A stretch of 64,000 nucleotides of DNA from a virus. Position 1 is the first letter of the stretch. Each line of letters starts with the position of its first letter. A program made the translations under genes and the position numbers. Location of the stretch: the IMG/VR virus record IMGVR_UViG_3300035681_000001, positions 64,001 to 128,000 of that record; one strand, written 5' to 3'. A model generated the notes under the pieces. That model did not search any database. It worked only from the letters and a program-made list of their open reading frames with translations, and was not told the origin of the DNA. Shown here one piece after another: positions 6,001 to 62,527 of this stretch.

Positions 6001-9000
6001 TCACCTTTAGCAACTACGTTAAAGGTAGCTGTAGCTCGACTCCTAATGTCTGTTTCTGCAGGTACATAAGGCTTAACTTTAGAAGAAGCAGCAAAAGTAA
6101 TACCAGCTAAACTAATAGCGCCTAAAGAAGCCAAACTTGCAAAAGCAAGTGTAGAAAACAACGCACCACCAAAAACGGCAGAAGGCAAAGAGCCTTCTTG
6201 AAAAGACTGAGCCGTAGCTTTTAAGGTACTAGTAAAGTAAGAGAAAAACGGGGTACGACCTAAGATTTGTTCTTGGTAGTAACCTGTGTAGTTCCCTAAT
6301 TCATCACCTGAAGATTTACCAGTAGCGTAGTCCAAAAAGTCATAGAACCCTTTCTTAAAAAGGTCTACTGAAGCTTCACCGCCTACTCGCGCAGAAAAGT
6401 TATCTATGTTAGGAAAGTAAACTTTGCCCTTTTTAGATAGAGCCTGAGCTACGTTGGTCTCATGAAGCAGACCCATCAAGATTTCTACCGGTCTTTGGTT
6501 AGAAATTCGGATTAGTTCTTGCTGCCTTACACGAATAGCAGCAGATAAACCTTGACTGGTACCTAGTTGGTTGTATTCTTCAGGTCGCGCGGCTTTTTGA
6601 ATAGTTGCAGGTTGTTGCCTAGGTACAGCACTAAAGATTGAGTAAAGAGCTGAGGTTGAATTACGACTGGTTTTATACAAAGACTGCAGTAAGTAAACCT
6701 GATCCTTAGTAACCGACAACCCCTTTATCATTGCTAGTTCTGAACCTGAAATATCTGTGTAAGCACTAGTAGCTTGCACGTAACCTCTAAAACCATTTTT
6801 AGACTCTGACAGACCTAAAGGTCCTATCAAAGAAGCAAACATATTAGGGTTGTCTTGATAAGCTCCGGTTAGCTTTTGAATATTCCAGGCACCTGTAATG
6901 GTACTGCCAGCTTGTTCCAGTAACCCCAAAATGCCTGGGTTCTGTTTAGGGACATTAGCGTATCTAGCCCGTCGAGCTAAAGCTAATTGAGCCTGCGTAT
7001 AGTTATTTTGACCACCAAAGTGAAAAATCAGCATGGCGTTTTGCAGCCAGCTCATCTCTCCTTTGGGACCTATAGTAAGCTGATTACCAGCTGCTAAAAC
7101 AGCTGCAGCTAAGCTGTAAACCGCTGCGTATTTAACACCCTTACGAGCTGCCAGGTTAAAGCGTAAACCAGCAGTCTCTACCAAAGCAGGTCTTAAAGAC
7201 TGTAGGTGTAATAAAGCATCACTTTTACCTTTAGCAGCACCCAACGCTGCTGCCAGAGTTTTTACTGATTCGTCTCCTAAACCTAAACCTCTTAAAACCC
7301 CTTTATCACTTGCGTTAAACTTACGCTCATACGCATCCCAAATACCTTTTTGGTATCGAGCTGTAGTCCCAACAAATTCAAAATTAGGGTCACCAAAACG
7401 ACTGAACTTCTCAGCCCCAGCAAACACGCCGGCCCTAGCTAAAGCTGTACCGTAGTAAGCACCAAAAAACCCACCTATGTACAACTGCCTAAAGAAATTA
7501 TCCCGCGCTACGTTACCTGCAGACCAATTAGGGTCTTGAGCTTGTGTAGCTTGAGACTCATAGATCAAAGCTAACGGATTAAAAACCGAAGAATTAGGAG
7601 AAACTAAAGAACTATACGCTAAATAAGGCAGCAAATAAGGGGCTAGTGCTCTCAACGCGCTGCCTCTACGCATAGCACCTACAGTAGGTGAGGTATCAAG
7701 TAGAGTCCCAAAGGCACCTTTTATTAAGTTAGGTGCTACCAAAGTAGGAACTTGAGCCCAAGTAATAACTCGCTTAGTCATACGACCAGCAAAACCAATC
7801 AAGTCACGGGAAACAGAACCCTTTGGGTCTGCTGCACCGACAACGTTTTGGTTTCTGACAGCACGATAAACAGAACCCAAATAGCTAAGGGCACCTACTG
7901 TTCCTAGTGCAGCGTAAGTTTGTGATTCAGGAAAGAAAGTTACTACTGAGGCTAAGTCAGCAGCTTTACCCCAAAACAGTGCTGATTGTTCATCGTCATA
8001 AAACCTAGAGTCACTAACTAAACCAGCTCTTTTTTCCAGTAACCGCTGCATACGGGTTTTAGTTGCCCCGAAACTAAAACCAAAAGGTGCCATTGGTGTA
8101 GAACCAGCACCTAAAACAGGCATAAATTGGAAGCCAGCTCCTAGAGCCGTAACACCAGTTCTAGGATCTGAACGACCTACTACAGCAAACTGGAAGATAG
8201 GTGTAGGTATTTGTGCAGCAAAACTATAAGTGATGTCTTGTCGAGTAATGTCAGGAACACTCAACCGTTTTGCTAAATCACTTAAAGTTTGAGCACGAGC
8301 TGCATAAATAGGATTTTTCCAGCGCTGAGGGTCATTATTGATAATGTCTACCAAGATACCCTTAGCTATTGCATTTTCAGGATCTATCTCAAAAGAGCTG
8401 CTTTTGTCTTTACGGTAAATAGCGTTAAACAGGTTAGCAACAAACGAGGTTGAAGCTTGAGCTATAAGTATGCCGGCTACGGCACCTACCATAGCTCCTG
8501 TTTTGGAAAACCTTACACCCTTACGTGTAGTAGTTAGAATCTTACCTTTTTCGTAACCAATTTGCTGGTATTGAAGCTCACCATCAACTAGACCCTCAAA
8601 AACACTTACCAAGCTCCCACGCGATTTACCGGTACCTGATTTACCGCCTATAACTTTCTTAGAATAAACCAACTGACCTGGTTCAGTAACCTGAGATTTA
8701 TTAAGTATAGTTTCGTCTTTTAAGTTGTACTCAAACCTATCAGTAGTACGTTTGTGCATAACGTGACCACCCAACCAACTACCACCCAGCAAAGCTAACG
8801 TAGCTATAGGTTTAGGTACCGTACCTGTAAAGTAAGTCTCATTCCATCGTGTCCATTCTGAATCTTTATTCTGAGTCCGGTAACCAAAAATCTCACCTCC
8901 TATTTGGCTGAGTAAGTCAGCGCCTTGAGGTTGCATATAGTAGTTGTCAAAAATACGGTCTAAGACCAACAATGATCCTAATTTAAAGAAACCGGAGCGA

Positions 9001-11774
9001 AACTTACCAAACGAGCTAACGTCCTTAAAGCCACTAGCACCTAACACACTAGAAAAGCCACCAGCTCTAATCAGGTCTTTTTCAGCTGCTTTTAAGCCAA
9101 GTAACTGCTCACCTAGGGTCCCGGTAGCGGCATTAGCTCGGTTGGTTACTCTGGCCTGACGTAAGAATATATCTCGATGTATCTGTAGCATCTCACGTAC
9201 AGAACCTTTGCTAGCAAAGTTTCCTATTAAGTGACCCATACGAGTCACCGATTTAGTCAAACTGGTAAAACCCGGACTTACCAAAGAACTAGCTGAACGA
9301 TCAGACCCCGGTATTACACTCGTACCACCTTGAGATATAGTACGAGTGCTGGTATTACCAAAAGCCTCTCTAACCTCAGGAATCCACAACCACGGACTAG
9401 CAAAGATAAAACGCCCTATTTGATCAGCTGAAGCAGCAAGTGCTCTAACACGATCAGCCCCAATACCTTTGAGAGTTAACTGATAAGAGTAACCTTTAGA
9501 CTCATCTAAAAGGTTTATTTGAGGTAGCTCATGAGCCAAATCCCTAGCTGTTATTTTAGCCTCTTGCATCTTACCGGTTTCAGCAGAGCCAGCTGTCATT
9601 ACATAGTTTAAGAACGGCTCTAAAAAGTTATTCCAAACACTAGAATCAATACGCCTAAACACACCTATAGTGCCTATAGGGCCTGATACAAGCCCTTTAG
9701 GCTTTACTTCTAAGCTGTTTATATCAGACAAAAAGCCTACTTGGCTGCGTTCTAACTCAACTAATTCTGAAGCTGTAATACCTGAGTGTATTTTGCCTCC
9801 AAAGCCTCTTAAGCCTGCCTGATCCAGTTCTTTCCAGACTTCACTACTAATAGGATCAAAACCGTAGCTGTTAACTTTCTGTAGCTTACTGTCTATTAAA
9901 TCGCCAAGTTGTGTTTTACCTTCACTTTGAGCTACTTGAAGAGACCTTAAAGTATTAGACTGCAGCACGTGCAGCATTCTTTTAGAAGTTTCTCCTGGTT
10001 TATCACTAACAGAAACCTCATACAACTTGTTGTACCAGCCATCTAAAAAACCACCTTTTAAGCCGTACTGAGCCATAGTATCCGCCGCACGTTGCTCAAT
10101 ATGAGCTCGTAGCAGAGTAACACCGTGGCTAAACACAAAATAACTACCAATTGCTTGAGCAGTTTGTATTACAGTTTCTTGAGCAAAACCCAAAATACGT
10201 TCTACAGGGCCTACTTCGTTTTGGGTCTTATAGGCAGAACGGTAGAGCTTTTTAAGGCTGCCATAGTCCCTACCAGCTTTAGCATCTTCTAGGTCCTTAA
10301 GCCAGTAGTAACCTGACATAGTGTCCGTGGCTCGACCTATGCCCGCACCTAACAACCCTAAGAAACCCAACCCAGGTTTGTAGACATCGGTGTTAAAAGT
10401 ACTATTTACCCAAGCACCTACACCTGGATCTGAGAGCTGACGATCTAGCTGCCTTAACCAAAACCCAGGTTGGGAGTTACTTACTAAAGAATGAAAGTTC
10501 TCATAGACACTAACTTTAGTATTAGGGTGGTTAGTAAAAAACGACTGCGGCATTCGGGTAGGTAACCGCTGTAGCATACGCCGCTCACCGGCATCTGCAC
10601 CCAGCTCCCTAGATACTGTAGTAACATCTACAAACAATAAGTCCCTGACGTTCTTAGGGAAACTACGATACGCTTTTTCAACGGCGGATTCTTTTACGTA
10701 ACTCGGAGCTACGTCTACAAACTTAGTAGGGTTATCAGAAACTTTGATAAAACCATATTTACTAAAACCTTGAAGCTCGCGGGCTAAAGCATCAGCCAAT
10801 CTACGGTCGTTCAAGTACCGAACTTTTTCTAAAGTTTTGTTAGCGCTGCGGGATGAGATATTATAGGAACCAGAAAACAACTTACTGTCAATAACTCCTG
10901 CTTTAGCGTGCTGCAAGAGTTGTTTAGCGTAGTCAGCGGGTTGTAAATAGACTTCAACCCCAGCAGCACTCAACCCAGCTAGTAGTTTACTAGTAGATTC
11001 TTGATTACCACCACCTTTTGCACCTTTAGGATTTTGACCATATACTCTAACGTCTAGACCTCGTTGTTGAGCTTGCACTAAAGCTTCAGCTACTACAGGG
11101 TCGGTCATGTAAGCTTCAGCAATATATACACGTTGCTGAGCTTTGTTTATATCTCTAACTAGTTTGTCTACAAATTGAGGTCCGGCGCCAGGACCAGTAA
11201 CAAACACTGAACCACTCTTCAAACTAGCCTGCAAACCACCTACGTTACTATTACGATTTAGACCACGCCCTATAAAATCAGCAATACGTGCATCGTCAGC
11301 CAACACCTTAGGATCAGTGCTACGTACAGCAAAGTTAAGCTGCTGTAGACGCCCCCGCTTAGAATTCAGTATAGTGTTTAAGTTACCTGTTGAGGTAAAG
11401 CTTTCTGCGCCAGGCCTAAAAACCTGTTTAAGGTGTATATTCACCAAATTAGGACTCACGCCTGGCTTATACGGACCTACGTCGTCTAACACCAAAGTAC
11501 TGCTACGAGATATAGCTTGATCTGCTCTAGCTCTTACAAACTCACGTTCACGCCGTGCACCTTTATAAGTATCAGCACCTGCATTAACGTATAGCTCTCT
11601 AAACTTATCTAAATACTGACTTAGACCGGGCTGGCTTTTAACATCATAAAAAGCACCCCTTAAAGACCTAGCAGGTGCTCGCTGGAAAAAGGCACGAGTT
11701 TGTTCACCTATGGCCTCGGGCCCATAAAGAGACTCCGTCCCTGAAGTATAAGTTCCAGACAGAGTGTCAGCCAT
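1..11774 (-). CDS. Giant tape-measure-like virion protein (at least 3,924 aa, runs off the window edge); N-terminal PLD domain, C-terminal muramidase and start of an M23 peptidase
   Basis: ATG at 11774 overlaps the TAA of the upstream gene (TAATG). Manual translation starts MADTLSGTYTSGTESLYGPE and gave no stop down to base 1. The track omits it, consistent with the absence of a stop codon. It is Gly/Ala/Leu-rich with many hydrophobic helices. Confidence 0.85.
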   Translation of the reverse strand, partial: MADTLSGTYTSGTESLYGPEAIGEQTRAFFQRAPARSLRGAFYDVKSQPGLSQYLDKFRELYVNAGADTYKGARREREFVRARADQAISRSSTLVLDDVGPYKPGVSPNLVNIHLKQVFRPGAESFTSTGNLNTILNSKRGRLQQLNFAVRSTDPKVLADDARIADFIGRGLNRNSNVGGLQASLKSGSVFVTGPGAGPQFVDKLVRDINKAQQRVYIAEAYMTDPVVAEALVQAQQRGLDVRVYGQNPKGAKGGGNQESTSKLLAGLSAAGVEVYLQPADYAKQLLQHAKAGVIDSKLFSGSYNISSRSANKTLEKVRYLNDRRLADALARELQGFSKYGFIKVSDNPTKFVDVAPSYVKESAVEKAYRSFPKNVRDLLFVDVTTVSRELGADAGERRMLQRLPTRMPQSFFTNHPNTKVSVYENFHSLVSNSQPGFWLRQLDRQLSDPGVGAWVNSTFNTDVYKPGLGFLGLLGAGIGRATDTMSGYYWLKDLEDAKAGRDYGSLKKLYRSAYKTQNEVGPVERILGFAQETVIQTAQAIGSYFVFSHGVTLLRAHIEQRAADTMAQYGLKGGFLDGWYNKLYEVSVSDKPGETSKRMLHVLQSNTLRSLQVAQSEGKTQLGDLIDSKLQKVNSYGFDPISSEVWKELDQAGLRGFGGKIHSGITASELVELERSQVGFLSDINSLEVKPKGLVSGPIGTIGVFRRIDSSVWNNFLEPFLNYVMTAGSAETGKMQEAKITARDLAHELPQINLLDESKGYSYQLTLKGIGADRVRALAASADQIGRFIFASPWLWIPEVREAFGNTSTRTISQGGTSVIPGSDRSASSLVSPGFTSLTKSVTRMGHLIGNFASKGSVREMLQIHRDIFLRQARVTNRANAATGTLGEQLLGLKAAEKDLIRAGGFSSVLGASGFKDVSSFGKFRSGFFKLGSLLVLDRIFDNYYMQPQGADLLSQIGGEIFGYRTQNKDSEWTRWNETYFTGTVPKPIATLALLGGSWLGGHVMHKRTTDRFEYNLKDETILNKSQVTEPGQLVYSKKVIGGKSGTGKSRGSLVSVFEGLVDGELQYQQIGYEKGKILTTTRKGVRFSKTGAMVGAVAGILIAQASTSFVANLFNAIYRKDKSSSFEIDPENAIAKGILVDIINNDPQRWKNPIYAARAQTLSDLAKRLSVPDITRQDITYSFAAQIPTPIFQFAVVGRSDPRTGVTALGAGFQFMPVLGAGSTPMAPFGFSFGATKTRMQRLLEKRAGLVSDSRFYDDEQSALFWGKAADLASVVTFFPESQTYAALGTVGALSYLGSVYRAVRNQNVVGAADPKGSVSRDLIGFAGRMTKRVITWAQVPTLVAPNLIKGAFGTLLDTSPTVGAMRRGSALRALAPYLLPYLAYSSLVSPNSSVFNPLALIYESQATQAQDPNWSAGNVARDNFFRQLYIGGFFGAYYGTALARAGVFAGAEKFSRFGDPNFEFVGTTARYQKGIWDAYERKFNASDKGVLRGLGLGDESVKTLAAALGAAKGKSDALLHLQSLRPALVETAGLRFNLAARKGVKYAAVYSLAAAVLAAGNQLTIGPKGEMSWLQNAMLIFHFGGQNNYTQAQLALARRARYANVPKQNPGILGLLEQAGSTITGAWNIQKLTGAYQDNPNMFASLIGPLGLSESKNGFRGYVQATSAYTDISGSELAMIKGLSVTKDQVYLLQSLYKTSRNSTSALYSIFSAVPRQQPATIQKAARPEEYNQLGTSQGLSAAIRVRQQELIRISNQRPVEILMGLLHETNVAQALSKKGKVYFPNIDNFSARVGGEASVDLFKKGFYDFLDYATGKSSGDELGNYTGYYQEQILGRTPFFSYFTSTLKATAQSFQEGSLPSAVFGGALFSTLAFASLASLGAISLAGITFAASSKVKPYVPAETDIRSRATATFNVVAKGEAYEFSLRSGGGTTNPQIKVSVPSASASSQVADAYNTARNSMFSLTDEQLSPQNIKQTLLDDMARMYGGATDQQNFAQQIYGKEYDPRRTNNIIEQYGLERNVRGSRILDAESKRLHALNHYVNAALLVHESFLENTEETDRSLAGRYTGKGTQRWASDSIPTDTIVKAINETFRQRGYSGLVREGITGSTSTLIDYFNLVQAYELLSAGSYLGSTSESVRTRAGYFVVAKSGELAAGLGIFALLRKAWSTSPTFATFAGLAAVGTYVGLNRITNNGVQNFLSGVSDTVNENFIKPTTAFLASGLAAVGQAPLVKTALSGLNTVARILDPALYAIRKKALNVPGFGIIARFLLPETVRSFMEEQTGLLPTASSWQGPRMEEYGEDANTRAETMQKRRLFRATSLPNELDDALFSPALMGRSVYDPEPEFDARYFGSSGYAERVLTQGGFRSQSLVSNLMLSAMRQRQFMVDTTAANFYYTRPQPANYDYSLLQTAAGLAWRSSKASNKGYWGTFLTGASTVYRDFKTLGDKVSQSEFTTDLKALGSGIGRVANRTTEPAISWLANQTRRFTVGGLRFAGLSNRITFRALGKGFSKNSKFLGALAPSAALGGLGVWLLGDAVGDYYATAANLNEQDRNRLKFGLGLASASTFEIMLGIDSARRWNPQESAYVYGKSQVSRVGRYGLAAGVGAFAFTSLFNYLGDNTSKNWGFDYGEDYHLSTAAGTVVGAGSYAYFRHLQKGYATYLEGVNIEPEVTTVTRDSSVRLPGPKGFSGPRGPGSPGMGPITTATVATALPEPTPAADTPLSFKSYVGSQRLGILPTWRRILKNRYTGMGLGLLALLPLLPVHNLNSLGVFKLPALAGFLALVGYGVYGALGTTGIKRVFGAFKGTRIGAVGSGIDKFFQNVQQFLGVLNIRPALREFKTKVLQNEKFIAARKLVGGLAGKLGRFAAVYGGLISSGLGVSQLNGDSRRVQYQTAYSEFFQNAAGLAVTAAGGRSRQVFGTFFLMQDLVKDNPLADAVTDQFYQEDQLDPAGANRRNITRVGLGAAAVIGLNLGIRRLSKTALSRLSGIAGTLTLATSSLANLLSGSLLKPNRTAWQLSSEAVDQEFQPLQNALFGSILRGSVSTAIWSTVAGAALSWDPVRSFRTSQIAQSMQAAGKYNPQGYAELGLYQRAGGLIAASLLAPLAARLIRSPFRSNSLAVANTLLIAFNVSQSLGAIAGTQVYLMQNDPRSRPWEAAAVSLANYQDAGFRDSIIQDSTRSTFKGRFFDYFRAQYARPTKGFGSPNLWQKGVNLLASPLGWAKTLIGGKLGTGLTVLNVIDEAVNSGKSLVDAGVSALGAAVTSTILFTGLQSLFSAARVGGLFSSVARVAAPALIAKQLSSIAMRTWRTYKLPGYESMDDDNIGTVSNTIGAAAGGIALLNFFKGGGGPRGGTGGGNAGGGAGASPSSSPTTSTRGGFRGLRRLVGEGAVGRGNLAIIGLEVLQAGLIASDTPYGNKVRAAVQADESFRDKLLKGESLANTPEAQAGKRDFELVSRFAGNMITRAGDAAAWLGTAIAGLALWGFSSVFGGGSAAAATPGKFSNLTLQPTEQVMYDYIAAQKRKIAAQKTAYQKTRKQQRWVSEQTFRQTNEQKSWDLFQWAADRVKDLTGLATETFRRVGSFAQGATDGLGSALGELTGSAYVASVSAFTPLLRVIYAGEGGYNSVNRGNAGDTPGGLPGLSSMTFGEVMRRQAAGLHAVGAPQFIPSTLKIAMRDAGLKTTDVFSPYNQDRAAIALMIGSKQPALAAFLRGKSNNVRAAIDALAGEWASVKNASGRGQYNHVGRNRATITMSPELMWETRRRYLASPDAIRPTTPVDIIGGLFRSGTGGDRPVYVTNDRDSRGGSFIHAHLGLNQRGGSHVLRGQQTAQEASLLQTYAFSFIKEGFRQGEQRIEIHGLQGSRGGSIWLTRKSSDAEIKSAIARGVMGHHDPKYAIDINFDTLKKFIAPSAGKVT
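480..905 (-). other. Lambda-R-like/GH104-type muramidase domain in the giant protein
   Basis: IYAGEGGYNSVNRG...TFGEVMRRQ...HAVGAPQFIPSTL...FSPYNQDRAAIAL...ALAGEWASV...GRGQYNHVGRNRA matches the usual E-x-G-Y...Q-F-x-P-x-T-L...F-S-P-x-x-Q-D...LAxEWAS pattern. Confidence 0.8.
10760..11190 (-). other. PLD-superfamily domain (single HKD, Nuc/Zucchini type) in the giant protein
   Basis: DKLVRDINKAQQRVYIAEAYMTDPVVAEALVQAQQRGLDVRV...QHAKAGVIDSKLFSGSYNIS gives HxKxxxxD (H289, K291, D296) plus GSxN (302-305). Confidence 0.85.
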
Positions 11775-12358
11775 TAGGTGCGCACGCGCTCTACGTTACC
11801 TAAAGCACCTACTTTATACTCTTGAAGCATGTCTAAAGTAGCAGCAGGTTCGTAGTTAACAGTCAAGTTCGTACCTACTGCCGGGCGGTCAAAACGCCAA
11901 GCCAAAGCGTTATATTCAGCTACCCAATTATCTCCACTAGAAACAGACACTACACGCCATACCTTAAGGGGCAAGGTAGGGTCTTGATCCCCTAAAGCAA
12001 AAAAGTATTGGTTTAATAAGGGCACAGAAGGCACAATCCAAGTCTGAATGTCTAGCGGCGTCCGATTGCCAACCCGAAAGAATTCAGCTTGGTAACGACC
12101 TATAGGTAAGTATTTATCTGAGGGTAACAACTGAAAGCGCAACAGCCCATCAGGAGGTACATCTAACACTAGCGAATCAGGTATGTACTGATCAGGTCCT
12201 CTACGATTAGACCTAGGTGAGGTAATGCGTAAACGGTACTTAACGTCTGTTGGATTAAGAGCTGAATCGTCAGGGTTTAAAGCCCAGGGCTTAAATTGTA
12301 TGACTATAGGGGTGTAAATCTGACTACCTGCTTGGATTAAAGTATCTGACATTATCAA
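11774..12358 (-). CDS. Hypothetical protein, probably virion structural (beta-rich)
   Basis: 194-aa ORF between terminase and the giant gene; its stop overlaps the giant gene's start. Confidence 0.7.
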   Translation of the reverse strand: MIMSDTLIQAGSQIYTPIVIQFKPWALNPDDSALNPTDVKYRLRITSPRSNRRGPDQYIPDSLVLDVPPDGLLRFQLLPSDKYLPIGRYQAEFFRVGNRTPLDIQTWIVPSVPLLNQYFFALGDQDPTLPLKVWRVVSVSSGDNWVAEYNALAWRFDRPAVGTNLTVNYEPAATLDMLQEYKVGALGNVERVRT

Positions 12359-12386
12359 TACGGTGCTAGTTCCAGCTTAGAGCAAA

Positions 12387-15300
12387 CTACCAAGTGTCTA
12401 AAGAAAACCTAGAACCACCACCTGAACCACTAAAACTACCCCATCGCTGGCGGGTACCTAAAACTTCCCTTTTGAAGTTTCCTCTAGTAGAACTAAAGTC
12501 ATCTTCTACTGTAGGAGAAAATATAGCCGCAGGTTTTGGTACCGCTAATTTCCTAGAACTAGACCAATCAGCATGGGTGTTGCCTACTAGTTGCCAGCAA
12601 ATGGCGGCGACACAATCAGCCAAATCTTTGCTGTTATGGACTATAACTCCTGCTCCGACAGCAAAGTTATCCCAAAGATCCACTGACAAATCATAAACAG
12701 GAACTGGTTCTGATAATACAACCTTAGTAGTAGAAACTAGCTTTACTAGTTTTGTCAAACACATCAACTCAGCTTTACAGGTTTCTAGGTCTTTGGCTTG
12801 TATATACTCACCGCTGCTAAGCATAAATGGATGATCTGGGGTACACCTAATAACAGAACCATTATCTAAGCCTACATCTAGCAGTTCTGTTACCTCCATG
12901 GTTTTACGACCTCTAGCTCGACCAGGTACCAAAGTACCATCTGACTTAGCACTATATAACCAAACTTCTTTTCCTACCAACTCTGAAATCATTGGTGTAG
13001 TACCATCTAATAATGGTATTCGAGTTTCCCCGACTAAACATTTATCTGGCTTATGGTCAATTTTGTTAGCATTAATCAGCTGTAAGTGTATGAGTTCATC
13101 TTTTAGTAAAGATGTAAACTCTGACATCCTAGGGAAAATAATCCGATTCTCGTGTAGCAGCTTCCTCAAACAGTCATACATATCAAGTTGTATACCTCTA
13201 CTAAAGAAAATAGTTTCAGCTCGTAAGCCGTTAGCCTTAAGACGCTGAATAGTCTCTGGAGAGTGAGCGTGATCACTGGTAACTTTAGCTAGCGGCCGTT
13301 TACGGTTAATCTCATAAATAACAGACTGTACATTAGTGATACTGACTTGAATGCCGGGCTCAGGCTCCCAAGCTACTAGACCGTCTATAACCACTAAAGT
13401 TTCACCTTGTGAGTCGCGTTCTTTATGACCAAAAGCTAAACCGTAAGCATCACGTTTAACTGCTGGATCTAGGTGTAAGTAAGTAACTATACCGTCAGCT
13501 TCAGCTACTGTTGCTTGCATCCTCACTAGACCATCACCACCACTAGTGTCTTTCACTACTTTGATCTTTGAGCTGCCCCTAAAAGCTCTTACTACTTCTT
13601 CTTTGTCCAAGAACGAATACTGCCCTGAATGGCGTATACCTTCAAACTCCAAAGCAGCTTTAATAGGATCTTCTGCATACTCGATCTTAATGACTGGTTG
13701 TTGACGACCTGCTCGTTTAGGGTTAAGGTCCCAAGATCTTAACCTAAAGCCTACCATTGAGTCGGCTACTTCAGGATCTTTACACGTCCGATAAAGCTTT
13801 TGTATAGCATCTTCGTCTTCCCAAGCAGAAGAAATAGCTACCCTCAAAGCATCTAGCCCAAAAGTAACACCTGAAACACCAATGTTAGACCAAAGCTCTA
13901 AAGCGTTAGACTCACCGTTTTCAGATTTAAAGCGAGCTACTTCATCCATTACCAGCAAGATCACACTAGATCCTACCTGAGAAGAAGACTTAGAATTACC
14001 CGCGTAGATATATAGTAATTTTTCCGGATACTTGATTTCTTGTTCACCTACTATTATTCTTTTTTGGTCTATCAACCTGCGGATTACAGGTACGTAATAC
14101 AACAACGCTCGGGCTTGACCGTAAATAGTACGTTTAGTTTGTTCTGCAGCGGTAGCCATACAAAATATGGCTATAGGAGTAGAAGCTGCTATACCGTAGT
14201 GCAACTGGGGCGAAGACTGTAAGCACAACTTGTAGAACTCATAAGCAACTATCAAAGAGCCAACCATCGTGTTGTGGTTGGTGAAGCCCTGTGCAACGTA
14301 TTGCTCACACCCAGGTACTGAGAGGTCTACACAAAAAGCTTCAGAGTCTTCAACAGACTCCACGAGATCATAAAAGTAGTCGCAATCTCGTAAGTACTTA
14401 AAGTGCTCGACGGCTTCTAGATCACTACAATGTTCCTCAGCAAACTCAATCAAAGCCGGCAAACGGTAAGCACTGAATTCTTCAGTGGAGTTTTCTTTAA
14501 TAGAATTACCTACGATAGCTCGAAACTCTAGCTTTAAGTTTCGGGTTTTAGGTCGGTCTGCATAACCAGAACCTAGTAGTTTACCGGCGGCGTGAGCTGA
14601 ACCTGGCTGCTTGCCTCTATTAGAGGGTAAAGAATCACGCAGCCTCTTCAGCCACACTTTTTGGTTAGGTATACGTTCGGTATCACCTCCGTCTCTACTA
14701 GCAGCAGCTAAATAGTCAACTAACGGTTGCTGTTTTCTTGGCAAGCCAAAACCTATTTCAACAGCAAATCTCTTAACGCTGCGTTGCCCTCTTAGGATCA
14801 ACACGTAATAATCAGTTCCTTTGACATCTTTAGTTCTTACACGACTGACTACACCAAAGTTTAAGAGCATCAGCTGTACTTCTTCGGCTAACTGCTTTGA
14901 AGCAGTAGACAAAGTAACTTCTCGACCACCTTTCTCGCAGCTACCGTCAGCAGCAAAAAGACCGGACAAAAAAGCAGCTTGTACGTCTTTAGGGCTACGG
15001 CGTATAGACCAGGGTACTTTTTTAGTAGTAACGTGAGACTCAATAACAAAACCTAAAGAGTCAAAGTAACTACGCAGCACTTTACAGCCAATTGACAACC
15101 TGGCCCCAAATTGAGACCTCTTATCTTTAGTCTCCTTGGGGTACTCAAGTCCCGTTTTAGTAACTACGTCTGTATACCAAGGAATGTCTTGTAAGTGCGT
15201 AGTAAGCTGTATTTGGCAATTACTGGTCCAACTGCCGTCACCTACCAATAAACCTAAAAGCCTGCCTAAATCAGCATCTAAGAACTCAGGGTACTGCCGC

Positions 15301-16097
15301 TGCTTAACTGACATCCCATTGCTGTACTTAGTAAGGCTAGGGGCAAAGTGTTTTATTGATACGTATTCTGTAGGAAAAAGGTTGGTAGCTCTGTGTATAC
15401 AAGCCCACTCTCCCGCCTGAATGTCCCTAAAGTATCTCCACTCAATATTGCCGTGCGTATTTAATACTTTGATTCTATGTTCAGGGGTGGCTTCCAAGTT
15501 GTAGCTACATTCTGTTAGTACCTTTTTGGTTTTGGTTTGACCTTTTACGTAAAAGTTTTCAGCAGTAGCTCTTTTATTAGTTCCCTCAGTAGCTACGGTG
15601 TGGCTTAAAGGCAAAGCCACGTCTTTTAGTTGCTGCATACCTTGTTCAAGGGTAAGCATGTTCAGGTTCTGAGAAACAGACATAGCTTCTTTAAGCAGCT
15701 CGTGTCCATAAATCATACCATACTTTTGAGAGCCTAGGAGGGTATACAGACTGTGGCATTTGCCCCCCCTACGACCACATTCTAAAATCAGAGCTTGTTT
15801 CTTACCAATCTCCATTTCTAAGGAGAAACAGAGATCAAAAGTAGTACGATCTAGTTCATACCAAGTTTGTATAATTGCTCGCTCTTCATCATTAAAAACG
15901 TAATGCCCGTAAAAGATCTTTAAAATAAGCATCTGGCGGACATCTAACTCGATGCCCCAGTCTGGGTGTATTTCTTGCTCAATAAAGTCAACTATATTAG
16001 TTACTGCTGTATCAGTAGCAAACTTGGTTTGGAGATCTGTGACTAGATCATCAAAAAAACCATCAAAATTAAAATCCAGCCCGGCCGATTTGCTCAT
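12387..16097 (-). CDS. terL: Terminase large subunit with two inteins
   Basis: Walker A ECGRRGGK|T split by an intein; Walker B ILLVMDE; nuclease motifs YLHLDPAVKRDAYGL and SKDLADCVA. Confidence 0.92.
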   Translation of the reverse strand: MSKSAGLDFNFDGFFDDLVTDLQTKFATDTAVTNIVDFIEQEIHPDWGIELDVRQMLILKIFYGHYVFNDEERAIIQTWYELDRTTFDLCFSLEMEIGKKQALILECGRRGGKCHSLYTLLGSQKYGMIYGHELLKEAMSVSQNLNMLTLEQGMQQLKDVALPLSHTVATEGTNKRATAENFYVKGQTKTKKVLTECSYNLEATPEHRIKVLNTHGNIEWRYFRDIQAGEWACIHRATNLFPTEYVSIKHFAPSLTKYSNGMSVKQRQYPEFLDADLGRLLGLLVGDGSWTSNCQIQLTTHLQDIPWYTDVVTKTGLEYPKETKDKRSQFGARLSIGCKVLRSYFDSLGFVIESHVTTKKVPWSIRRSPKDVQAAFLSGLFAADGSCEKGGREVTLSTASKQLAEEVQLMLLNFGVVSRVRTKDVKGTDYYVLILRGQRSVKRFAVEIGFGLPRKQQPLVDYLAAASRDGGDTERIPNQKVWLKRLRDSLPSNRGKQPGSAHAAGKLLGSGYADRPKTRNLKLEFRAIVGNSIKENSTEEFSAYRLPALIEFAEEHCSDLEAVEHFKYLRDCDYFYDLVESVEDSEAFCVDLSVPGCEQYVAQGFTNHNTMVGSLIVAYEFYKLCLQSSPQLHYGIAASTPIAIFCMATAAEQTKRTIYGQARALLYYVPVIRRLIDQKRIIVGEQEIKYPEKLLYIYAGNSKSSSQVGSSVILLVMDEVARFKSENGESNALELWSNIGVSGVTFGLDALRVAISSAWEDEDAIQKLYRTCKDPEVADSMVGFRLRSWDLNPKRAGRQQPVIKIEYAEDPIKAALEFEGIRHSGQYSFLDKEEVVRAFRGSSKIKVVKDTSGGDGLVRMQATVAEADGIVTYLHLDPAVKRDAYGLAFGHKERDSQGETLVVIDGLVAWEPEPGIQVSITNVQSVIYEINRKRPLAKVTSDHAHSPETIQRLKANGLRAETIFFSRGIQLDMYDCLRKLLHENRIIFPRMSEFTSLLKDELIHLQLINANKIDHKPDKCLVGETRIPLLDGTTPMISELVGKEVWLYSAKSDGTLVPGRARGRKTMEVTELLDVGLDNGSVIRCTPDHPFMLSSGEYIQAKDLETCKAELMCLTKLVKLVSTTKVVLSEPVPVYDLSVDLWDNFAVGAGVIVHNSKDLADCVAAICWQLVGNTHADWSSSRKLAVPKPAAIFSPTVEDDFSSTRGNFKREVLGTRQRWGSFSGSGGGSRFSLDTW
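12633..13040 (-). mobile_element. Intein 2 (136-aa mini-intein)
   Basis: K|CLVGETRIPLLDG...CTPDHPF...VYDLSVDLWDNFAVGAGVIVHN|S, with no endonuclease motifs. Confidence 0.92.
14271..15758 (-). mobile_element. Intein 1 (496 aa) with LAGLIDADG homing endonuclease
   Basis: Starts at Cys (GK|CHSLY), ends GFTNHN|T, and contains LGLLVGDGSW and FLSGLFAADGS motifs. Confidence 0.92.
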
Positions 16098-57539: not shown

Positions 57540-58329
57540 CGCGTACCCAAAAAACCCATTCTACAAAGTAGTCTCCATCAACTATAGCAGCTAAATCTCC
57601 CTTACGACCTAAAGGCGCTTCGTAGGGACCAAACTCACCTACTACCCTTAAGTCCAACAAGTCACCAGTAGGTACCGGAGGGATACCTGTTGAGTTATAG
57701 TGAGTTTCTAAAAAGCGCTCTAGTAACACCGGATATTCACCTAGCCCAGCTTGTGGTAAACGTGAAGTATTAGCGGCACCACCTAACGACGTAACAAACG
57801 AAGGTGTTCCCGGAGCGTTGATTAAAGCAGTCACCTGAGCCCTTAAAGCGCCAACACGGTCGATACTAACTACAGACCCACCAGTAGGGTCTAGCACCAC
57901 CGGCCACCGGGCGTCCCACACTAAGTCAGAAGCTGTAGGTACGGGAATACCAGCCCAAACATACCCAGTAGTAGTACGAGTGTAGTAACCTTCAAAAGGC
58001 AACGCTAAAGGATCCGGTGGCGGGTAAACACCTCCCACTATAGGAGTAGTAACGTAAGTATACGAGTCTAAATAGAGCTCTAAGTCCACCGCATTACCTA
58101 AATGCCTAAAAGCTGCGCCGGCGGAACGAGTGTAGTTAGCTGTTAAGTAAACAGCTATGTTCTCAGGCCCTAAAGTAAATAACGGTGAATAAACTAACGC
58201 CGCAGCCATAACTGACTCAGACCGCGCCGGTACGTAAGGTAGTTGAGGGTAAATAAAACCCTCACTAACAGCCGCCAACAACCTAGAGTGTAACCCCGGC
58301 GGGTCAGTATTAATAGGGTAATAAGTCAC
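57478..58329 (-). CDS. Hypothetical protein
   Basis: 283-aa ORF overlapping PAAR by 62 nt. Confidence 0.6.
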   Translation of the reverse strand: MTYYPINTDPPGLHSRLLAAVSEGFIYPQLPYVPARSESVMAAALVYSPLFTLGPENIAVYLTANYTRSAGAAFRHLGNAVDLELYLDSYTYVTTPIVGGVYPPPDPLALPFEGYYTRTTTGYVWAGIPVPTASDLVWDARWPVVLDPTGGSVVSIDRVGALRAQVTALINAPGTPSFVTSLGGAANTSRLPQAGLGEYPVLLERFLETHYNSTGIPPVPTGDLLDLRVVGEFGPYEAPLGRKGDLAAIVDGDYFVEWVFWVRDETISSSGGLANLSGLSSSS

Positions 58330-58769
58330 GCTACCGCCGAACTAAGTAAAAACCCTAAAGAACAATGAGTCTCACTAATACCACCTAGCAAATTCATACC
58401 ACCCAACGACCGAGGGTCTGTGCTGGTGGCTAAAGCCGAATTAGCTTCGTAAACAGACTTAAGAACGGCGGTGTTAGCTGTTACTAAAGCATCCAAATAA
58501 GAACCAGCAGGTAACACACCAGTCACAGGAACCAAAGTAGTTAGTTCACTCAACAACGCCAAAGTCGCGGGCGCCCGTACACCTACACCCCTAAGGTACT
58601 CAGCCAAACGGTCTACGTTAGCATAAGACTCTTTGTAAACCCGGTCATACAACAAGTGGTGCGCGTAGAAATTAGAACCGGAGGTGTTCCAGTGCGCGTT
58701 CGAAGCCAACAACGCAAAAGAATAAACATCAGCAAACGCAGTTAACAGCTCAGACACTAGCAGTAACAC
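58326..58769 (-). CDS. dps: Dps/ferritin-like protein
   Basis: AHWNTSGSNFYAHHLLYDRVY...DRLAEYLRGVG fits the Dps ferroxidase signature. Confidence 0.85.
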   Translation of the reverse strand: MLLLVSELLTAFADVYSFALLASNAHWNTSGSNFYAHHLLYDRVYKESYANVDRLAEYLRGVGVRAPATLALLSELTTLVPVTGVLPAGSYLDALVTANTAVLKSVYEANSALATSTDPRSLGGMNLLGGISETHCSLGFLLSSAVA

Positions 58770-59172: not shown

Positions 59173-59370
59173 ATGACCAAGACTGCTGTCTTGTTTGCCC
59201 TTGCAGCTCTCTTTGGAGGGCTGTTAATGGGAAGGGCTTCGGCCCCTCAACCTTTCAGTACCGAGGAAACTCGGTACTGCAAGGAATCCTTGCGTACTGC
59301 AAGGACGGAGCAAAAGCTCCGCAAGGCCTTAGTGGAGGCCTTGACTCCCTTAGGAGTTGAGGTCCAGTAA
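59173..59370 (+). CDS. Small protein (65 aa) with N-terminal hydrophobic/signal-like segment
   Basis: GGAG RBS; MTKTAVLFALAALFGGLLMG. Confidence 0.8.
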   Translation: MTKTAVLFALAALFGGLLMGRASAPQPFSTEETRYCKESLRTARTEQKLRKALVEALTPLGVEVQ

Positions 59371-59381
59371 CTAACTTAACT

Positions 59382-59429
59382 AAGCCCCCGGAAACGGGGG
59401 CTTTTTTGTGGGCTCTTTATTACACCCAC
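59382..59429 (+). terminator. Array element E2
   Basis: AAGCCCCCG-GAAA-CGGGGGC-T6-GTGGG-N12-CCCAC. Confidence 0.88.
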
Positions 59430-59693: not shown

Positions 59694-59777
59694 ATGGAAC
59701 TCTTTTTTGGTTGTTTTGCTGCTAACCTAGCAGCCGCAGGGCTGCTAGCTGTTATTTACCTGAGGTGCCTTAGGTAA
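59694..59777 (+). CDS. 27-aa hydrophobic peptide (absent from the track)
   Basis: MELFFGCFAANLAAAGLLAVIYLRCLR fills the space between E3 and E4. Confidence 0.6.
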   Translation: MELFFGCFAANLAAAGLLAVIYLRCLR

Positions 59778-59785
59778 ACTTTTTA

Positions 59786-59830
59786 CCCCCGGAAACGGGG
59801 GCTTTTTTGTACGTGGGTCACCATACCCAC
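59786..59830 (+). terminator. Array element E4
   Basis: CCCCCG-GAAA-CGGGGG-C-T6-GTAC-GTGGGT-CACCAT-ACCCAC. Confidence 0.88.
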
Positions 59831-59844
59831 ACTGCTTCAAAGAC

Positions 59845-60006
59845 ATGGCTGATTTCCAGATCGTCATCACCCCCTGGGGTGAAGCAAAAGTGGAGGCCTT
59901 AGGGTCTCCTGTTTTGCCCGGTTACACCGGACCGTTTACCTACCCGAAAGGGTGGGTGGTTGAGGGTGCCCTCCGGCACCTGAGGAGGTTGCACTTGATT
60001 AACTAG
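59845..60006 (+). CDS. 53-aa hypothetical protein (absent from the track)
   Basis: MADFQIVITPWGEAKVEALGSPVLPGYTGPFTYPKGWVVEGALRHLRRLHLIN fills E4-E5. Confidence 0.7.
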   Translation: MADFQIVITPWGEAKVEALGSPVLPGYTGPFTYPKGWVVEGALRHLRRLHLIN

Positions 60007-60012
60007 TCTAAT

Positions 60013-60059
60013 AAGCCCTCGGAAACGGGGGCTTTTTTGTGGGCCTCGTTAACACCCAC
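60013..60059 (+). terminator. Array element E5
   Basis: AAGCCCTCG-GAAA-CGGGGGC-T6-GTGGG-CCTCGTTAACA-CCCAC, then GGAGGT RBS. Confidence 0.88.
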
Positions 60060-60068
60060 GGAGGTAAC

Positions 60069-60608
60069 ATGTCTCGCACCAGCCGCGTCAACGGCCTACG
60101 CGACGGTCGTCGTGTGCCTAAAGCCCACCAGGGTTTTAGAAAGGTTCTGAGGGCCGAAGCCCTCAATCTGGATTTTCAGGTCCAGATTGAGGAGGATGGG
60201 ACAGATCACTCCTTTGAGGAGGATTGGACAGATCAGATGTACAACTGGGAGCAGTACAACTGGGAGCAGTACAAGTTATTAAACCGTGTCATTTATGACG
60301 ACGGTTTAGTAAAACTTGAGGTTGAAGCGTATATGCCTGTAAGGCAGTTATGCCTACACCTAAACTTAACTACGTGGTGGGGTAACCACTACGTAGGGAG
60401 GGATATTATTCCCCACTGCTCCATAAAAGGTGTAATCAAGGCTTTTAGAGCCTACGTTGAAGAGCTCAAGTGCAAAGAGGTAGAAATACCTTTTTGCATA
60501 TGTCCCTACGACGAAGACGGAAAAAGGGACTACCGAGTCTGTGTGTATCAGAAATTAGGGTTTGAAATAGACCCTGATGATCCAGATTTCCTAATCTTCT
60601 GGACTTGA
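60069..60608 (+). CDS. Hypothetical protein (179 aa), possibly GNAT-like C-terminal half
   Basis: GGAGGT RBS; C-terminal RVCVYQKLGF; family call tentative. Confidence 0.75.
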   Translation: MSRTSRVNGLRDGRRVPKAHQGFRKVLRAEALNLDFQVQIEEDGTDHSFEEDWTDQMYNWEQYNWEQYKLLNRVIYDDGLVKLEVEAYMPVRQLCLHLNLTTWWGNHYVGRDIIPHCSIKGVIKAFRAYVEELKCKEVEIPFCICPYDEDGKRDYRVCVYQKLGFEIDPDDPDFLIFWT

Positions 60609-60614
60609 TTTTAT

Positions 60615-60657
60615 ACCCCCGGAAACGGGGGTTTTTTTACGTAGGTCTAGTACCTAC
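60615..60657 (+). terminator. Array element E6
   Basis: ACCCCCG-GAAA-CGGGGG-T7-AC-GTAGGT-CTAGT-ACCTAC. Confidence 0.88.
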
Positions 60658-60671
60658 ACCACTAACAAACC

Positions 60672-60890
60672 ATGGCTATCTGCAAAACCTACTGGTCCCA
60701 AGTTTCTGCTTGGGCAGAAACCCTAATATGGAAGGGGGAGGTAAAGCTCCCTACTTCATATTCAGCTGCCTTGTTAAAGGCAGACCTGCTAGTTGCTTTA
60801 AAGCAATTAGCGGGCGAGAGCCCAGTTAAGTACCGCCTGCAAAGGCGGAGGGCGCCTTACCTGCACTTTGTGCTGGAAATAAGGCGGTAA
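60672..60890 (+). CDS. Small hypothetical protein (72 aa)
   Basis: Fills E6-E7. Confidence 0.75.
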   Translation: MAICKTYWSQVSAWAETLIWKGEVKLPTSYSAALLKADLLVALKQLAGESPVKYRLQRRRAPYLHFVLEIRR

Positions 60891-60899
60891 TCTAACTTT

Positions 60900-60959
60900 C
60901 CCCCGGAGGGTGCCCCTGCACTCCGGGGGCTTTTTTGTGCTTAGCAATTCAGCTAACAC
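60900..60959 (+). terminator. Array element E7
   Basis: CCCCCGGAG-N12-CTCCGGGGG-C-T6-GTGC-TTAGC-AATTCA-GCTAA-CAC. Confidence 0.85.
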
Positions 60960-60977
60960 TTAAGCCCTCGGAGGGTC

Positions 60978-61073
60978 ATGGTCAAATCTACTTTCGGCAA
61001 CTTTATAGCCGTACGTCGCCGTGAGCGGCGTAAGAAGCTGTGGGCTACCTTTAAGAGGTGGTTGCGCAAGTAA
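60978..61073 (+). CDS. 31-aa arginine-rich peptide (N-antiterminator-like motif; absent from the track)
   Basis: GGAGG RBS; MVKSTFGNFIAVRRRERRKKLWATFKRWLRK fills E7-E8. Confidence 0.75.
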   Translation: MVKSTFGNFIAVRRRERRKKLWATFKRWLRK

Positions 61074-61081
61074 CTGCCTTT

Positions 61082-61124
61082 AACCCCTACGGGGGTTTTT
61101 TTGTGGGCTATCGTTAACACCCAC
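61082..61124 (+). terminator. Array element E8
   Basis: AACCCC-TACG-GGGG-T7-GTGGG-CTATCGTTAACA-CCCAC, then GGAGGT RBS. Confidence 0.88.
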
Positions 61125-61133
61125 GGAGGTAAC

Positions 61134-61400
61134 ATGTCGAGACTACAGCACCGCTTCGCAGCACGGGCTTACAACCTGTGCTGCGAGGCGGAAGCCTACG
61201 GTTTCGTCAATTCGGGCTGGTTACCACCGGCTCGACTTGACGACGACCACCTCCAGGTGTGGGTTGCAACGCTTTTAGGGCGCTGCAACCACTTAGCAGA
61301 GTTCTTGCTAAGGGCTACTCTGGTTTATCCAGAGGCAGCACACACCCTTAACCGGGTACGTCGGCTGGTCAAAGACTACCGACGTGGCCACTTAGGTTAA
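61134..61400 (+). CDS. Hypothetical protein (88 aa)
   Basis: GGAGGT RBS; ATG 61134. Confidence 0.8.
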   Translation: MSRLQHRFAARAYNLCCEAEAYGFVNSGWLPPARLDDDHLQVWVATLLGRCNHLAEFLLRATLVYPEAAHTLNRVRRLVKDYRRGHLG

Positions 61401-61402
61401 CT

Positions 61403-61448
61403 AAAACCCCCGTAAGGGGGTTTTTTTGTGGGCCTCGTTAACACCCAC
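61403..61448 (+). terminator. Array element E9
   Basis: AAAACCCCC-GTAA-GGGGG-T7-GTGGG-CCTCGTTAACA-CCCAC. Confidence 0.88.
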
Positions 61449-62318: not shown

Positions 62319-62321
62319 GTA

Positions 62322-62389
62322 AGCTTTAGCTTAACCAATAAGAGCCGTTGCTCTGGCTGTGTATCGCACAGGTTGGTTAAGTTAAAGCT
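62322..62389 (+). ncRNA. Candidate three-way-junction structured element
   Basis: 17-bp closing stem with one G-T pair (62322-62338/62373-62389) enclosing AGAGC-CGTT-GCTCT and CTGTG-TATCG-CACAG; no ATG-initiated ORF in this unit. Confidence 0.65.
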
Positions 62390-62474
62390 GCACCCCCTAA
62401 ACGTGCTAGCACATACGGGGGAAACTACTACTACTTATTAGTACACGGGGGCAAGTTTATAACCTTAACGTACA

Positions 62475-62527
62475 TCCGGAAACGGGGGTTTTTTTGTCCT
62501 GGCAATTCAGCTAGGCGTTAACACCCA
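62475..62527 (+). terminator. Array element E12 (degenerate first hairpin)
   Basis: TCCG-GAAA-CGGGGG-T7-GT-CCTGGC-AATTCA-GCTAGG-CGTTAACACCCA. Confidence 0.7.

Follow-up and report, generated by a model that had tools for sequence, protein, structure and literature searches.

The locus described here raises the question of whether the RNA-binding module of a phage N protein could exist as a gene of its own. The analyzed window is the 64,000-nt stretch that comprises bases 64001–128000 of a single 189,763-bp virus record. The open reading frame (ORF) at positions 60978–61073 on its plus strand encodes a 31-aa peptide, MVKSTFGNFIAVRRRERRKKLWATFKRWLRK, which has a net charge of +11 and contains the hexapeptide RRRERR. 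The initial annotation had pointed to this ORF and its motif, and both were confirmed by translation. We tentatively favor a reading of sequence and structure model in which the ORF would be an early mini-gene for an N-like, arginine-rich single helix that likely binds structured RNA, with the hairpins of the surrounding array as its most plausible ligands.

The phage genome is ~190 kb long, and the window encodes a Mu-type portal protein, an E-type capsid protein, a tail sheath and giant ORFs. The capsid protein is ~30% identical to the capsid proteins of the Microcoleus phage My-WqHQDG and the Microcystis Ma-LMM01 group, and the source phage is a freshwater myovirus that is distant kin of the Microcystis and Microcoleus phages. 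Near-identical DNA was present in 24 public sequencing runs, all of which were lake-water DNA metagenomes, and the phage was abundant in runs X1–X5. A cyanobacterial host is plausible; a Pfam search of the phage genome for NblA as a host marker found none. On the minus strand, the window also encodes a 1236-aa protein of the structural module, which contains both an intein with a LAGLIDADG domain and, C-terminally, a PT-HINT domain (12387–16097). The gene of a ferritin/Dps-like protein (58326–58769, minus strand) lies directly before the strand switch into the array, and the same layout is found in a relative of P0008.

The peptide ORF is part of an array of small cassettes. A scan for hairpin/T-tract elements detected 13 on the plus strand of the genome, all of them between 59.1 and 78 kb of the window and 12 within 59.1–65.1 kb. 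In each unit of the array such an element is directly followed by a G, a second (5′) hairpin, a Shine–Dalgarno (SD) sequence, and one ORF. The second hairpin is of the type GTGGGC..(G)TTAACACCCAC in seven units (family D1), and it has an AATTCA loop in three units, including that of the peptide (family D7). The description of the region as an array of GNRA terminators was partly right, as the loops of the ~14 first hairpins are of the GNRA type in eight elements (G[GAAA]C in six, GUGA and GUAA in one each), and the others are UACG or longer. Hairpins with GNRA caps are ~25-fold concentrated in the array, which accounts for 10 of the 24 hairpins with a perfect stem and a GNRA loop on the plus strand of the 190-kb genome. 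GNRA and UNCG loops are a common stability device on intrinsic terminators. Two further GNRA hairpins, which lack a T-tract, are located in coding sequences on the plus strand, one in U1 (59256–59279; 10-bp stem, GAAA loop) and one in U6 (60833–60848; 6-bp stem, GCAA loop), the latter encoding RLQRR. In all cassettes the stop codon is located 3–15 nt 5′ of the terminator. One cassette, at 62319–62470, has no ORF, and another mini-cassette (59696–59779, plus strand) has as its sole content a 27-codon ORF for a hydrophobic peptide, MELFFGCFAANLAAAGLLAVIYLRCLR, with a poor in-frame codon score.

The RNA of this region is predicted to be highly structured. Between 59200 and 62350 on the plus strand, nearly every 150-nt segment folds with a z-score of −3 to −10 relative to dinucleotide shuffles, compared to a genome background of −0.6 ± 1.3, and the hyper-structured block (59.2–62.3 kb) is sharply bounded. 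The coding sequences of the array are built of back-to-back perfect hairpins of 6–17 bp, and whole-ORF z-scores reach −8.2 in U1, −11.2 in U5 and −10.6 in U8. The idea that these hairpins are protected from substitution between strains was rejected, because 42 of 65 substitutions fell in paired positions, which make up 64% of all positions. Across strains of 95% identity, 25 predicted pairs were broken and 16 were kept. The substitutions are thus not depleted in predicted pairs and break more of them than they keep.

The peptide ORF is the sole cargo of a unit of ~170 nt bounded by two hairpin/T-tract elements, and it is preceded at a distance of 3 nt from the ATG by GGAGGG (60970–75), so that the ribosome binding site and the separate unit attributed to it in the initial annotation were both found. 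The SD spacing is similarly short in other cassettes (GGAGGTAAC-ATG). The upstream boundary element (60900–60936), which closes cassette U6, is terminator-like, with a hairpin (60900–60929) consisting of a 9-bp C5/G5 stem and a 12-nt loop, followed by T6. The 5′ hairpin of the peptide cassette, GUG.CUUAGC-AAUUCA-GCUAACAC, begins at the G after the T-tract (60937–60959). A CT>TC change in the alleles on contigs L005–L007 shifts its bulge and keeps the helix, and hairpins of the same AATTCA-loop type precede the large gene at 62527 and the cassette at ~64392. The segment AAGCCCTCGGAGGG (60962–60975), which holds the Shine–Dalgarno GGAGG (60970–74), is invariant in all alleles, and 11 nt of it are identical to the 5′ arm of the terminator at 60013. 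The downstream boundary element (61082–61102) consists of the hairpin AACCCC-UACG-GGGGUU (61082–61097) and T7, and it is followed by the 5′ hairpin box of the next cassette, GTGGGC..GTTAACACCCAC (61103–61124). All these features are on the plus strand.

The 31 codons of the ORF specify seven arginines, five lysines and one glutamate. The content of arginine and lysine is thus 39% (23% R and 16% K), compared to 6.8% R in the other proteins of the array. Their ordinary arginine content led to the rejection of the idea that the arginine richness is a by-product of a GC-rich, hairpin-coding region. The AlphaFold model of the peptide is a single helix spanning residues 5–30, predicted with moderate confidence (pLDDT 68). 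One face of this helix would be hydrophobic (L21, W22, F25, W28 and L29) and the remainder basic. Two segments of the peptide correspond to P22 N. The KSTF sequence of codons 3–6 (60984–60995) equals residues 8–11 of P22 gp24, at an equal distance from the arginine block. The arginine-rich motif (ARM) itself, RRRERRKKL, is encoded by codons 13–21 (61014–61040).

To evaluate the similarity to N proteins, the peptide was compared with its references at several levels. The peptides quoted in the initial annotation were correct, as lambda N reads MDAQTRRRERRAEKQAQW (NC_001416) and P22 gp24 reads ...GKSTFAGNAKTRRHERRRKLAIER (NC_002371). The patterns RRRERR and RR.ERR have one occurrence in the six frames of the whole genome, where 0.02 and 0.14, respectively, are expected from genome Markov shuffles, and 0.0003 and 0.008 from array-like sequence. 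Because the locus came from a scan of ~250,000 windows, in which chance motifs are expected many times, the motif alone proves nothing. The proposed RRxERRxKL match to P22 N is longer than had been claimed, as it extends to KSTF, which was absent from the earlier argument. BLASTP against P22 gp24 gave 11 identities in 19 ungapped positions (KSTF......RR.ERR+KL) with a pairwise E value of 4e-5. This 22.7-bit match would fail after database-wide correction, and the finding had been picked for its resemblance to N. None of 20,000 shuffles of the peptide reached the observed score against P22 N, and 1.9% did so when the arginine block was kept fixed. Among the 558 small ATG-initiated ORFs of the genome, the peptide had the highest score against P22 N (51, with the next best at 39). 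The comparison with lambda N gave a different result, as five other small ORFs of the genome matched the score of the peptide. Hence, the similarity to lambda N is at the noise level.

Profile searches pointed to the same protein family. The only Pfam family returned for the peptide was PF25694 (N_peptide, "Transcriptional antitermination N peptide"), with an E value of 0.03 and 15.3 bits, which is below the gathering cut-off of 27.9. Residues 3–23 of the peptide aligned to positions 8–28 of the 100 in the profile. When the six frames of the phage genome were searched with this profile, the peptide was the single match (11.9 bits), and in control genomes sub-threshold matches were obtained in 4 of 14, with the cut-off passed in one more. 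Among ~120 P22-type N genes in IMG/VR, the sequence MTVI.YGKSTFAGNAKTRR(H/R)ERRRKLA is almost invariant, KSTF included, and some of these proteins read RRRERRRKL. The codons that match P22 N differ at nearly all third positions, which excludes a recent transfer and would make the event old if the two are related. From these comparisons, homology of the peptide to the P22-type N module appears possible but rather unlikely, with convergence or chance accounting for the remainder; the peptide would be either a captured or a convergent module of the P22 N type.

Relatives of the peptide were searched for in several collections. An exhaustive search of 1.84 billion representative proteins returned only the peptide's own cluster. 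No matches to the array, the peptide or its 179-aa neighbor were found by blastn and tblastn in 50,697 phage records, and nothing was retrieved from IMG/VR in scans with the junction motif, the U12 protein or the back-translated ARM. There was likewise nothing in PHROGs for the peptide or its neighbors, nor in Pfam for the neighboring proteins, and a phmmer search against PDB chains gave only a chance match to BluB and no N-peptide entry. The matches to the pattern KSTF..ARM..KL in IMG/VR were all enterobacterial P22-type N genes. When metagenome DNA was scanned, TF..ARM..KLW gave 0 matches, and MxKSTFGNF gave 76, all of which were chance matches and none of which had the arginine motif. Syntenic relatives (L001, L003 and L004, with U12 homologs of 38–46% identity) have similar hairpin-punctuated arrays with other post-hairpin motifs, and in these arrays neither such a peptide nor a GAAA preference was found. 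In L001 (ena ERZ18628690 scaffold_854, 1200–13000; U12 homolog 38% identical) the small genes, which include those of pentapeptide-repeat proteins, are separated by C5/G5 hairpins. These are followed by T-rich TTTTATA(GG), not by T6–7-GTGGGC, and have the varied loops AUGU, GCAA, GUAA and AUAA. By these searches, the peptide is an ORFan confined to one phage species.

This restriction to one species bears on a doubtful but serious possibility, namely that the peptide is real and its likeness to N coincidental. It could then be a generic polycationic amphipathic helix with a target such as the hyper-structured early mRNAs, for which it might serve as an RNA chaperone, or DNA, the ribosome, a membrane or a host protein. 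Such an explanation is consistent with the similarity being statistically marginal given the way the finding was selected, and an unspecific chaperone would make sense for RNAs as extraordinarily structured as those of the array. The cassette also looks partly assembled from junction debris, as its 5′ UTR and one internal stretch resemble decayed copies of junction elements, which fits a young, de novo ORF. On the other hand, a generic helix does not account for KSTF at the spacing of P22 N, for the small fraction of arginine-fixed shuffles that reach the observed score, or for N_peptide being the only Pfam match.

The coding status of the ORF was examined using strain variation. The protein cluster of the peptide contains three 31-aa alleles, which were called independently in several metagenomes, and contigs L005–L007 are ~95% identical to the window over 59787–61136. 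The start codon, SD, frame and stop codon are kept in all three alleles. Of the six substitutions that set the most divergent allele apart over the 96 nt, three are synonymous third-position changes, two of them within the arginine motif (AAG>AAA and CTG>CTA), and three are conservative replacements (V2I, A23S and T24A); five of the six are clustered. The pN/pS ratio of the peptide is 0.29, a value derived from only these six substitutions, five of them clustered, and those of neighboring cassette genes are 0.19, 0.6 and 0.07. The ratio points toward coding but does not reach significance by itself. The codon score was best in the annotated frame among the four scored (three plus-strand frames and one on the reverse complement). 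The protein sequence of the motif is invariant in the three alleles, so that the conservation of the arginine pattern, on which the initial annotation had made its proposal depend, holds among alleles of 90–97% identity, while no more distant homolog was present in the collections searched. Because the ORF has its own cassette and ribosome binding site, a frame kept in three alleles and a coding-like pattern of substitutions, it is probably a real early mini-gene.

The same strains indicate how the cassettes vary. In them, the next gene (88 aa) is swapped for a 90-aa allele of 36% identity, and the break is located exactly after ...GTTAACACCCAC (61124/61125), that is, at the 3′ end of the 5′ hairpin box. 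Cassettes are therefore exchanged as units between strains, and the peptide cassette has been retained across the mosaic. The cassette is 94–99% identical across this mosaic (L005–L007 and runs X13 and X21), and these strains have a 295-aa gene further downstream that is missing from this genome.

The alternative that the cassette is non-coding, with a small structured RNA as its product like the ORF-less cassette at 62319–62470, is unlikely. In that case the ORF would result incidentally from GC-rich hairpins, in which CGN-rich palindromes are read as arginine. The existence of one array cassette clearly without an ORF fits this explanation, as does the z-score of −3.3 for the folding of the whole unit. 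Moreover, the codons of RRRERR form a predicted 8-bp hairpin, UACGUCGC/GCGGCGUA (61012–61032), and a second predicted hairpin (61054–61081), which abuts the terminator, spans the last codons and the stop codon with 12 bp, four of them G-U, and a GCAA (GNRA) loop. None of the six allele substitutions falls in these two hairpins (chance ~0.035, with five of the substitutions clustered); as the second hairpin is invariant in the alleles, it offers no covariation to test. However, the long ORFs of this array that are proven as a rule contain hairpins too, so that hairpins are no argument against coding, and no other ORF of the array is as weakly structured as that of the peptide (z-score −1.5, compared to −4 to −11). 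A non-coding cassette would also leave unexplained the strong, well-spaced SD, the ATG, frame and stop codon kept in all alleles, and the half of substitutions that are synonymous at third positions with the rest conservative. A search of Rfam at permissive thresholds gave only chance-level matches and no family.

It is quite unlikely that the ORF acts as a leader-peptide attenuator, in which translation of the arginine-codon-rich sequence would set read-through into the next cassette and the peptide itself would be irrelevant. Five arginine codons are present within six codons, the stop codon is 8–9 nt from the terminator stem, and a predicted alternative fold pairs AAGCCCTCGGAGGG, which contains the SD, with the 3′ arm of the terminator that follows the ORF. 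The position of the stop codon is nothing special to the peptide unit, however, because all cassettes place it at a comparable distance before the terminator, and the context is not one of amino-acid biosynthesis. It also argues against an effect of translation alone that amino-acid identity is conserved beyond the arginine codons; the three alleles have identical arginine codons throughout, and the lysine and leucine codons of the motif change synonymously.

To see how far the peptide fits the antitermination mechanism known for N proteins, its parts and surroundings were compared with those of lambda and P22. An N-terminal arginine-rich helix is predicted, with RRRERRKKL corresponding to RRHERRRKL in P22 and RRRERRAEK in lambda, and with KSTF as in P22. 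The NusA- and RNA polymerase (RNAP)-binding segments are missing, as the reading frame closes after residue 31, just before a terminator, and the flanking 72-aa and 88-aa proteins have no similarity to P22 N. Since the peptide is without the segments that load N onto RNAP, it cannot work like lambda or P22 N. No canonical boxB, meaning a 5-bp stem with a U-A-closed GNRNA pentaloop, was found in the array of this phage. Hairpins with GNRNA pentaloops occur at background level (54 and 42 on the two strands, with 41 expected per strand), and in the array none was found except an alternative register of one terminator. The junction loops hold CUCGUUAACA, which is identical to the E. coli boxA core at 9 of 10 positions; the phage probably has a host outside the enterobacteria. 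At 59410–59424, 60044–60054 and 61433–61443 (plus strand), GTGGGC..ACCCAC hairpins contain GCTCTTTA or CCTCGTTAACA in their loops, with 9 of 11 positions as in the enterobacterial boxA GCTCTTTAACA. With 22 boxA-like words in the window and 31 expected, there is no enrichment, and the boxA likeness of the junction loops was dropped as evidence. In the array, the GAAA hairpins have tetraloops closed by a G-C pair and form the terminator stems themselves. Binding of the peptide to them would not obviously block termination. Hence, although the ARM matches P22 N, fourteen consecutive terminators of one sense would require antitermination and a GNRA hairpin followed by the boxA-like CUCGUUAACA could be taken for a nut-like site at each junction, a true N-type processive antiterminator that modifies RNAP at such sites is highly improbable for a peptide of this length, with neighbors unrelated to N, unenriched boxA-like words and no canonical boxB.

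The observations are compatible with the following course of events for an N-like helix. The peptide, whose translation we infer, would be expressed early from a self-contained cassette of a hypervariable array of one-gene units. The product would be a single, strongly cationic α-helix, in which residues 3–21 appear to copy the layout of the boxB-binding N terminus of P22-type N. Binding of structured RNA through this helix would be its most likely activity, and hairpins of the array's own transcripts could be its most plausible ligands. Candidates are the repeated G[GAAA]C-capped hairpins at the cassette borders and the GCAA hairpin over the peptide's own stop codon, and the outcome could be changed read-through, RNA stability or translation. 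The more specific designation as a minimal antiterminator is a hypothesis that we regard as improbable. Similarly improbable is a free-standing N-type module, consisting only of the ARM, that would bind the G[GAAA]C hairpins and the GCAA hairpin of its own mRNA and, without Nus factors, tune read-through, RNA stability or translation in a hyper-structured early array whose transcription is probably carried out by a non-canonical RNAP of the phage itself.

If this ARM-only reading were true, the peptide would be a factor-independent termination modulator consisting of a peptide only, and the first N-like element outside the lambdoid phages of enterobacteria. Should the peptide bind the GNRA hairpins of the array, the boxB-binding module of N could act as an independent gene of 31 residues, N-type RNA recognition would no longer be confined to enterobacterial lambdoid phages but would include a large freshwater phage, and there would be a handle on the reading of ~14 consecutive terminators. 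Even if the likeness arose by convergence, the cassette would offer a compact natural candidate pair of ARM and hairpin for use in RNA tethering. Were the likeness a matter of chance, the peptide would simply be a further small, basic ORFan from the early region of a phage. Shuffling of cassettes between strains and extreme RNA structure within coding sequence may make the array a more important object than the peptide.

Among known systems, the closest in layout is P22 gp24, the P22-type N of family PF25694. Both share the arrangement KSTF-x6-RRxERR(R/K)KL, located the same few residues from the start codon and predicted to be helical. In contrast, P22 N has ~100 aa with a C-terminal portion acting on the transcription complex, compared to 31 aa in the phage peptide, and its gene belongs to a lambdoid immunity region, not to a cassette array of a myovirus. 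The boxB of P22 is a U-A-closed GACAA pentaloop after boxA, and there is no such site in this phage; as read from nutL, boxA is followed by GCGCUGACAAAGCGC in P22 and by GCCCUGAAGAAGGGC in lambda. Lambda N has the identical RRRERR hexapeptide, which corresponds to its residues 6–11, the most critical ones for boxB binding in deep mutational scanning, with E9 inert (PMC12027372). The ligand class would also be alike, as the candidate ligands proposed here have GNRA-like folds; lambda N requires a GNRNA pentaloop with a U-A closing pair (PMC12027372), and the hairpins of the array are without the U-A pair. The residue aligned with Trp18 of lambda N is F25 of the peptide, and W22 is located one turn earlier. 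The regions of lambda N that bind NusA and RNAP have no counterpart in the peptide.

A short arginine-rich helix can serve as an autonomous RNA-hairpin-binding module, as in HK022 Nun, HIV Rev and BIV Tat. Nun also bears a C-terminal domain for RNAP arrest, and HIV Rev and BIV Tat are proteins of eukaryotic viruses with different RNA targets. The sequence relation of all three to the peptide is limited to composition. With regard to the array, the comparison is with terminator-rich large phages such as 201phi2-1, in which 132 terminators have been mapped (PMC11512511). The two are alike in the dense, intrinsic-terminator-like punctuation between short early genes, while in the phage described here each unit adds a conserved second hairpin right after the T-tract, together with hyper-structured coding sequences.
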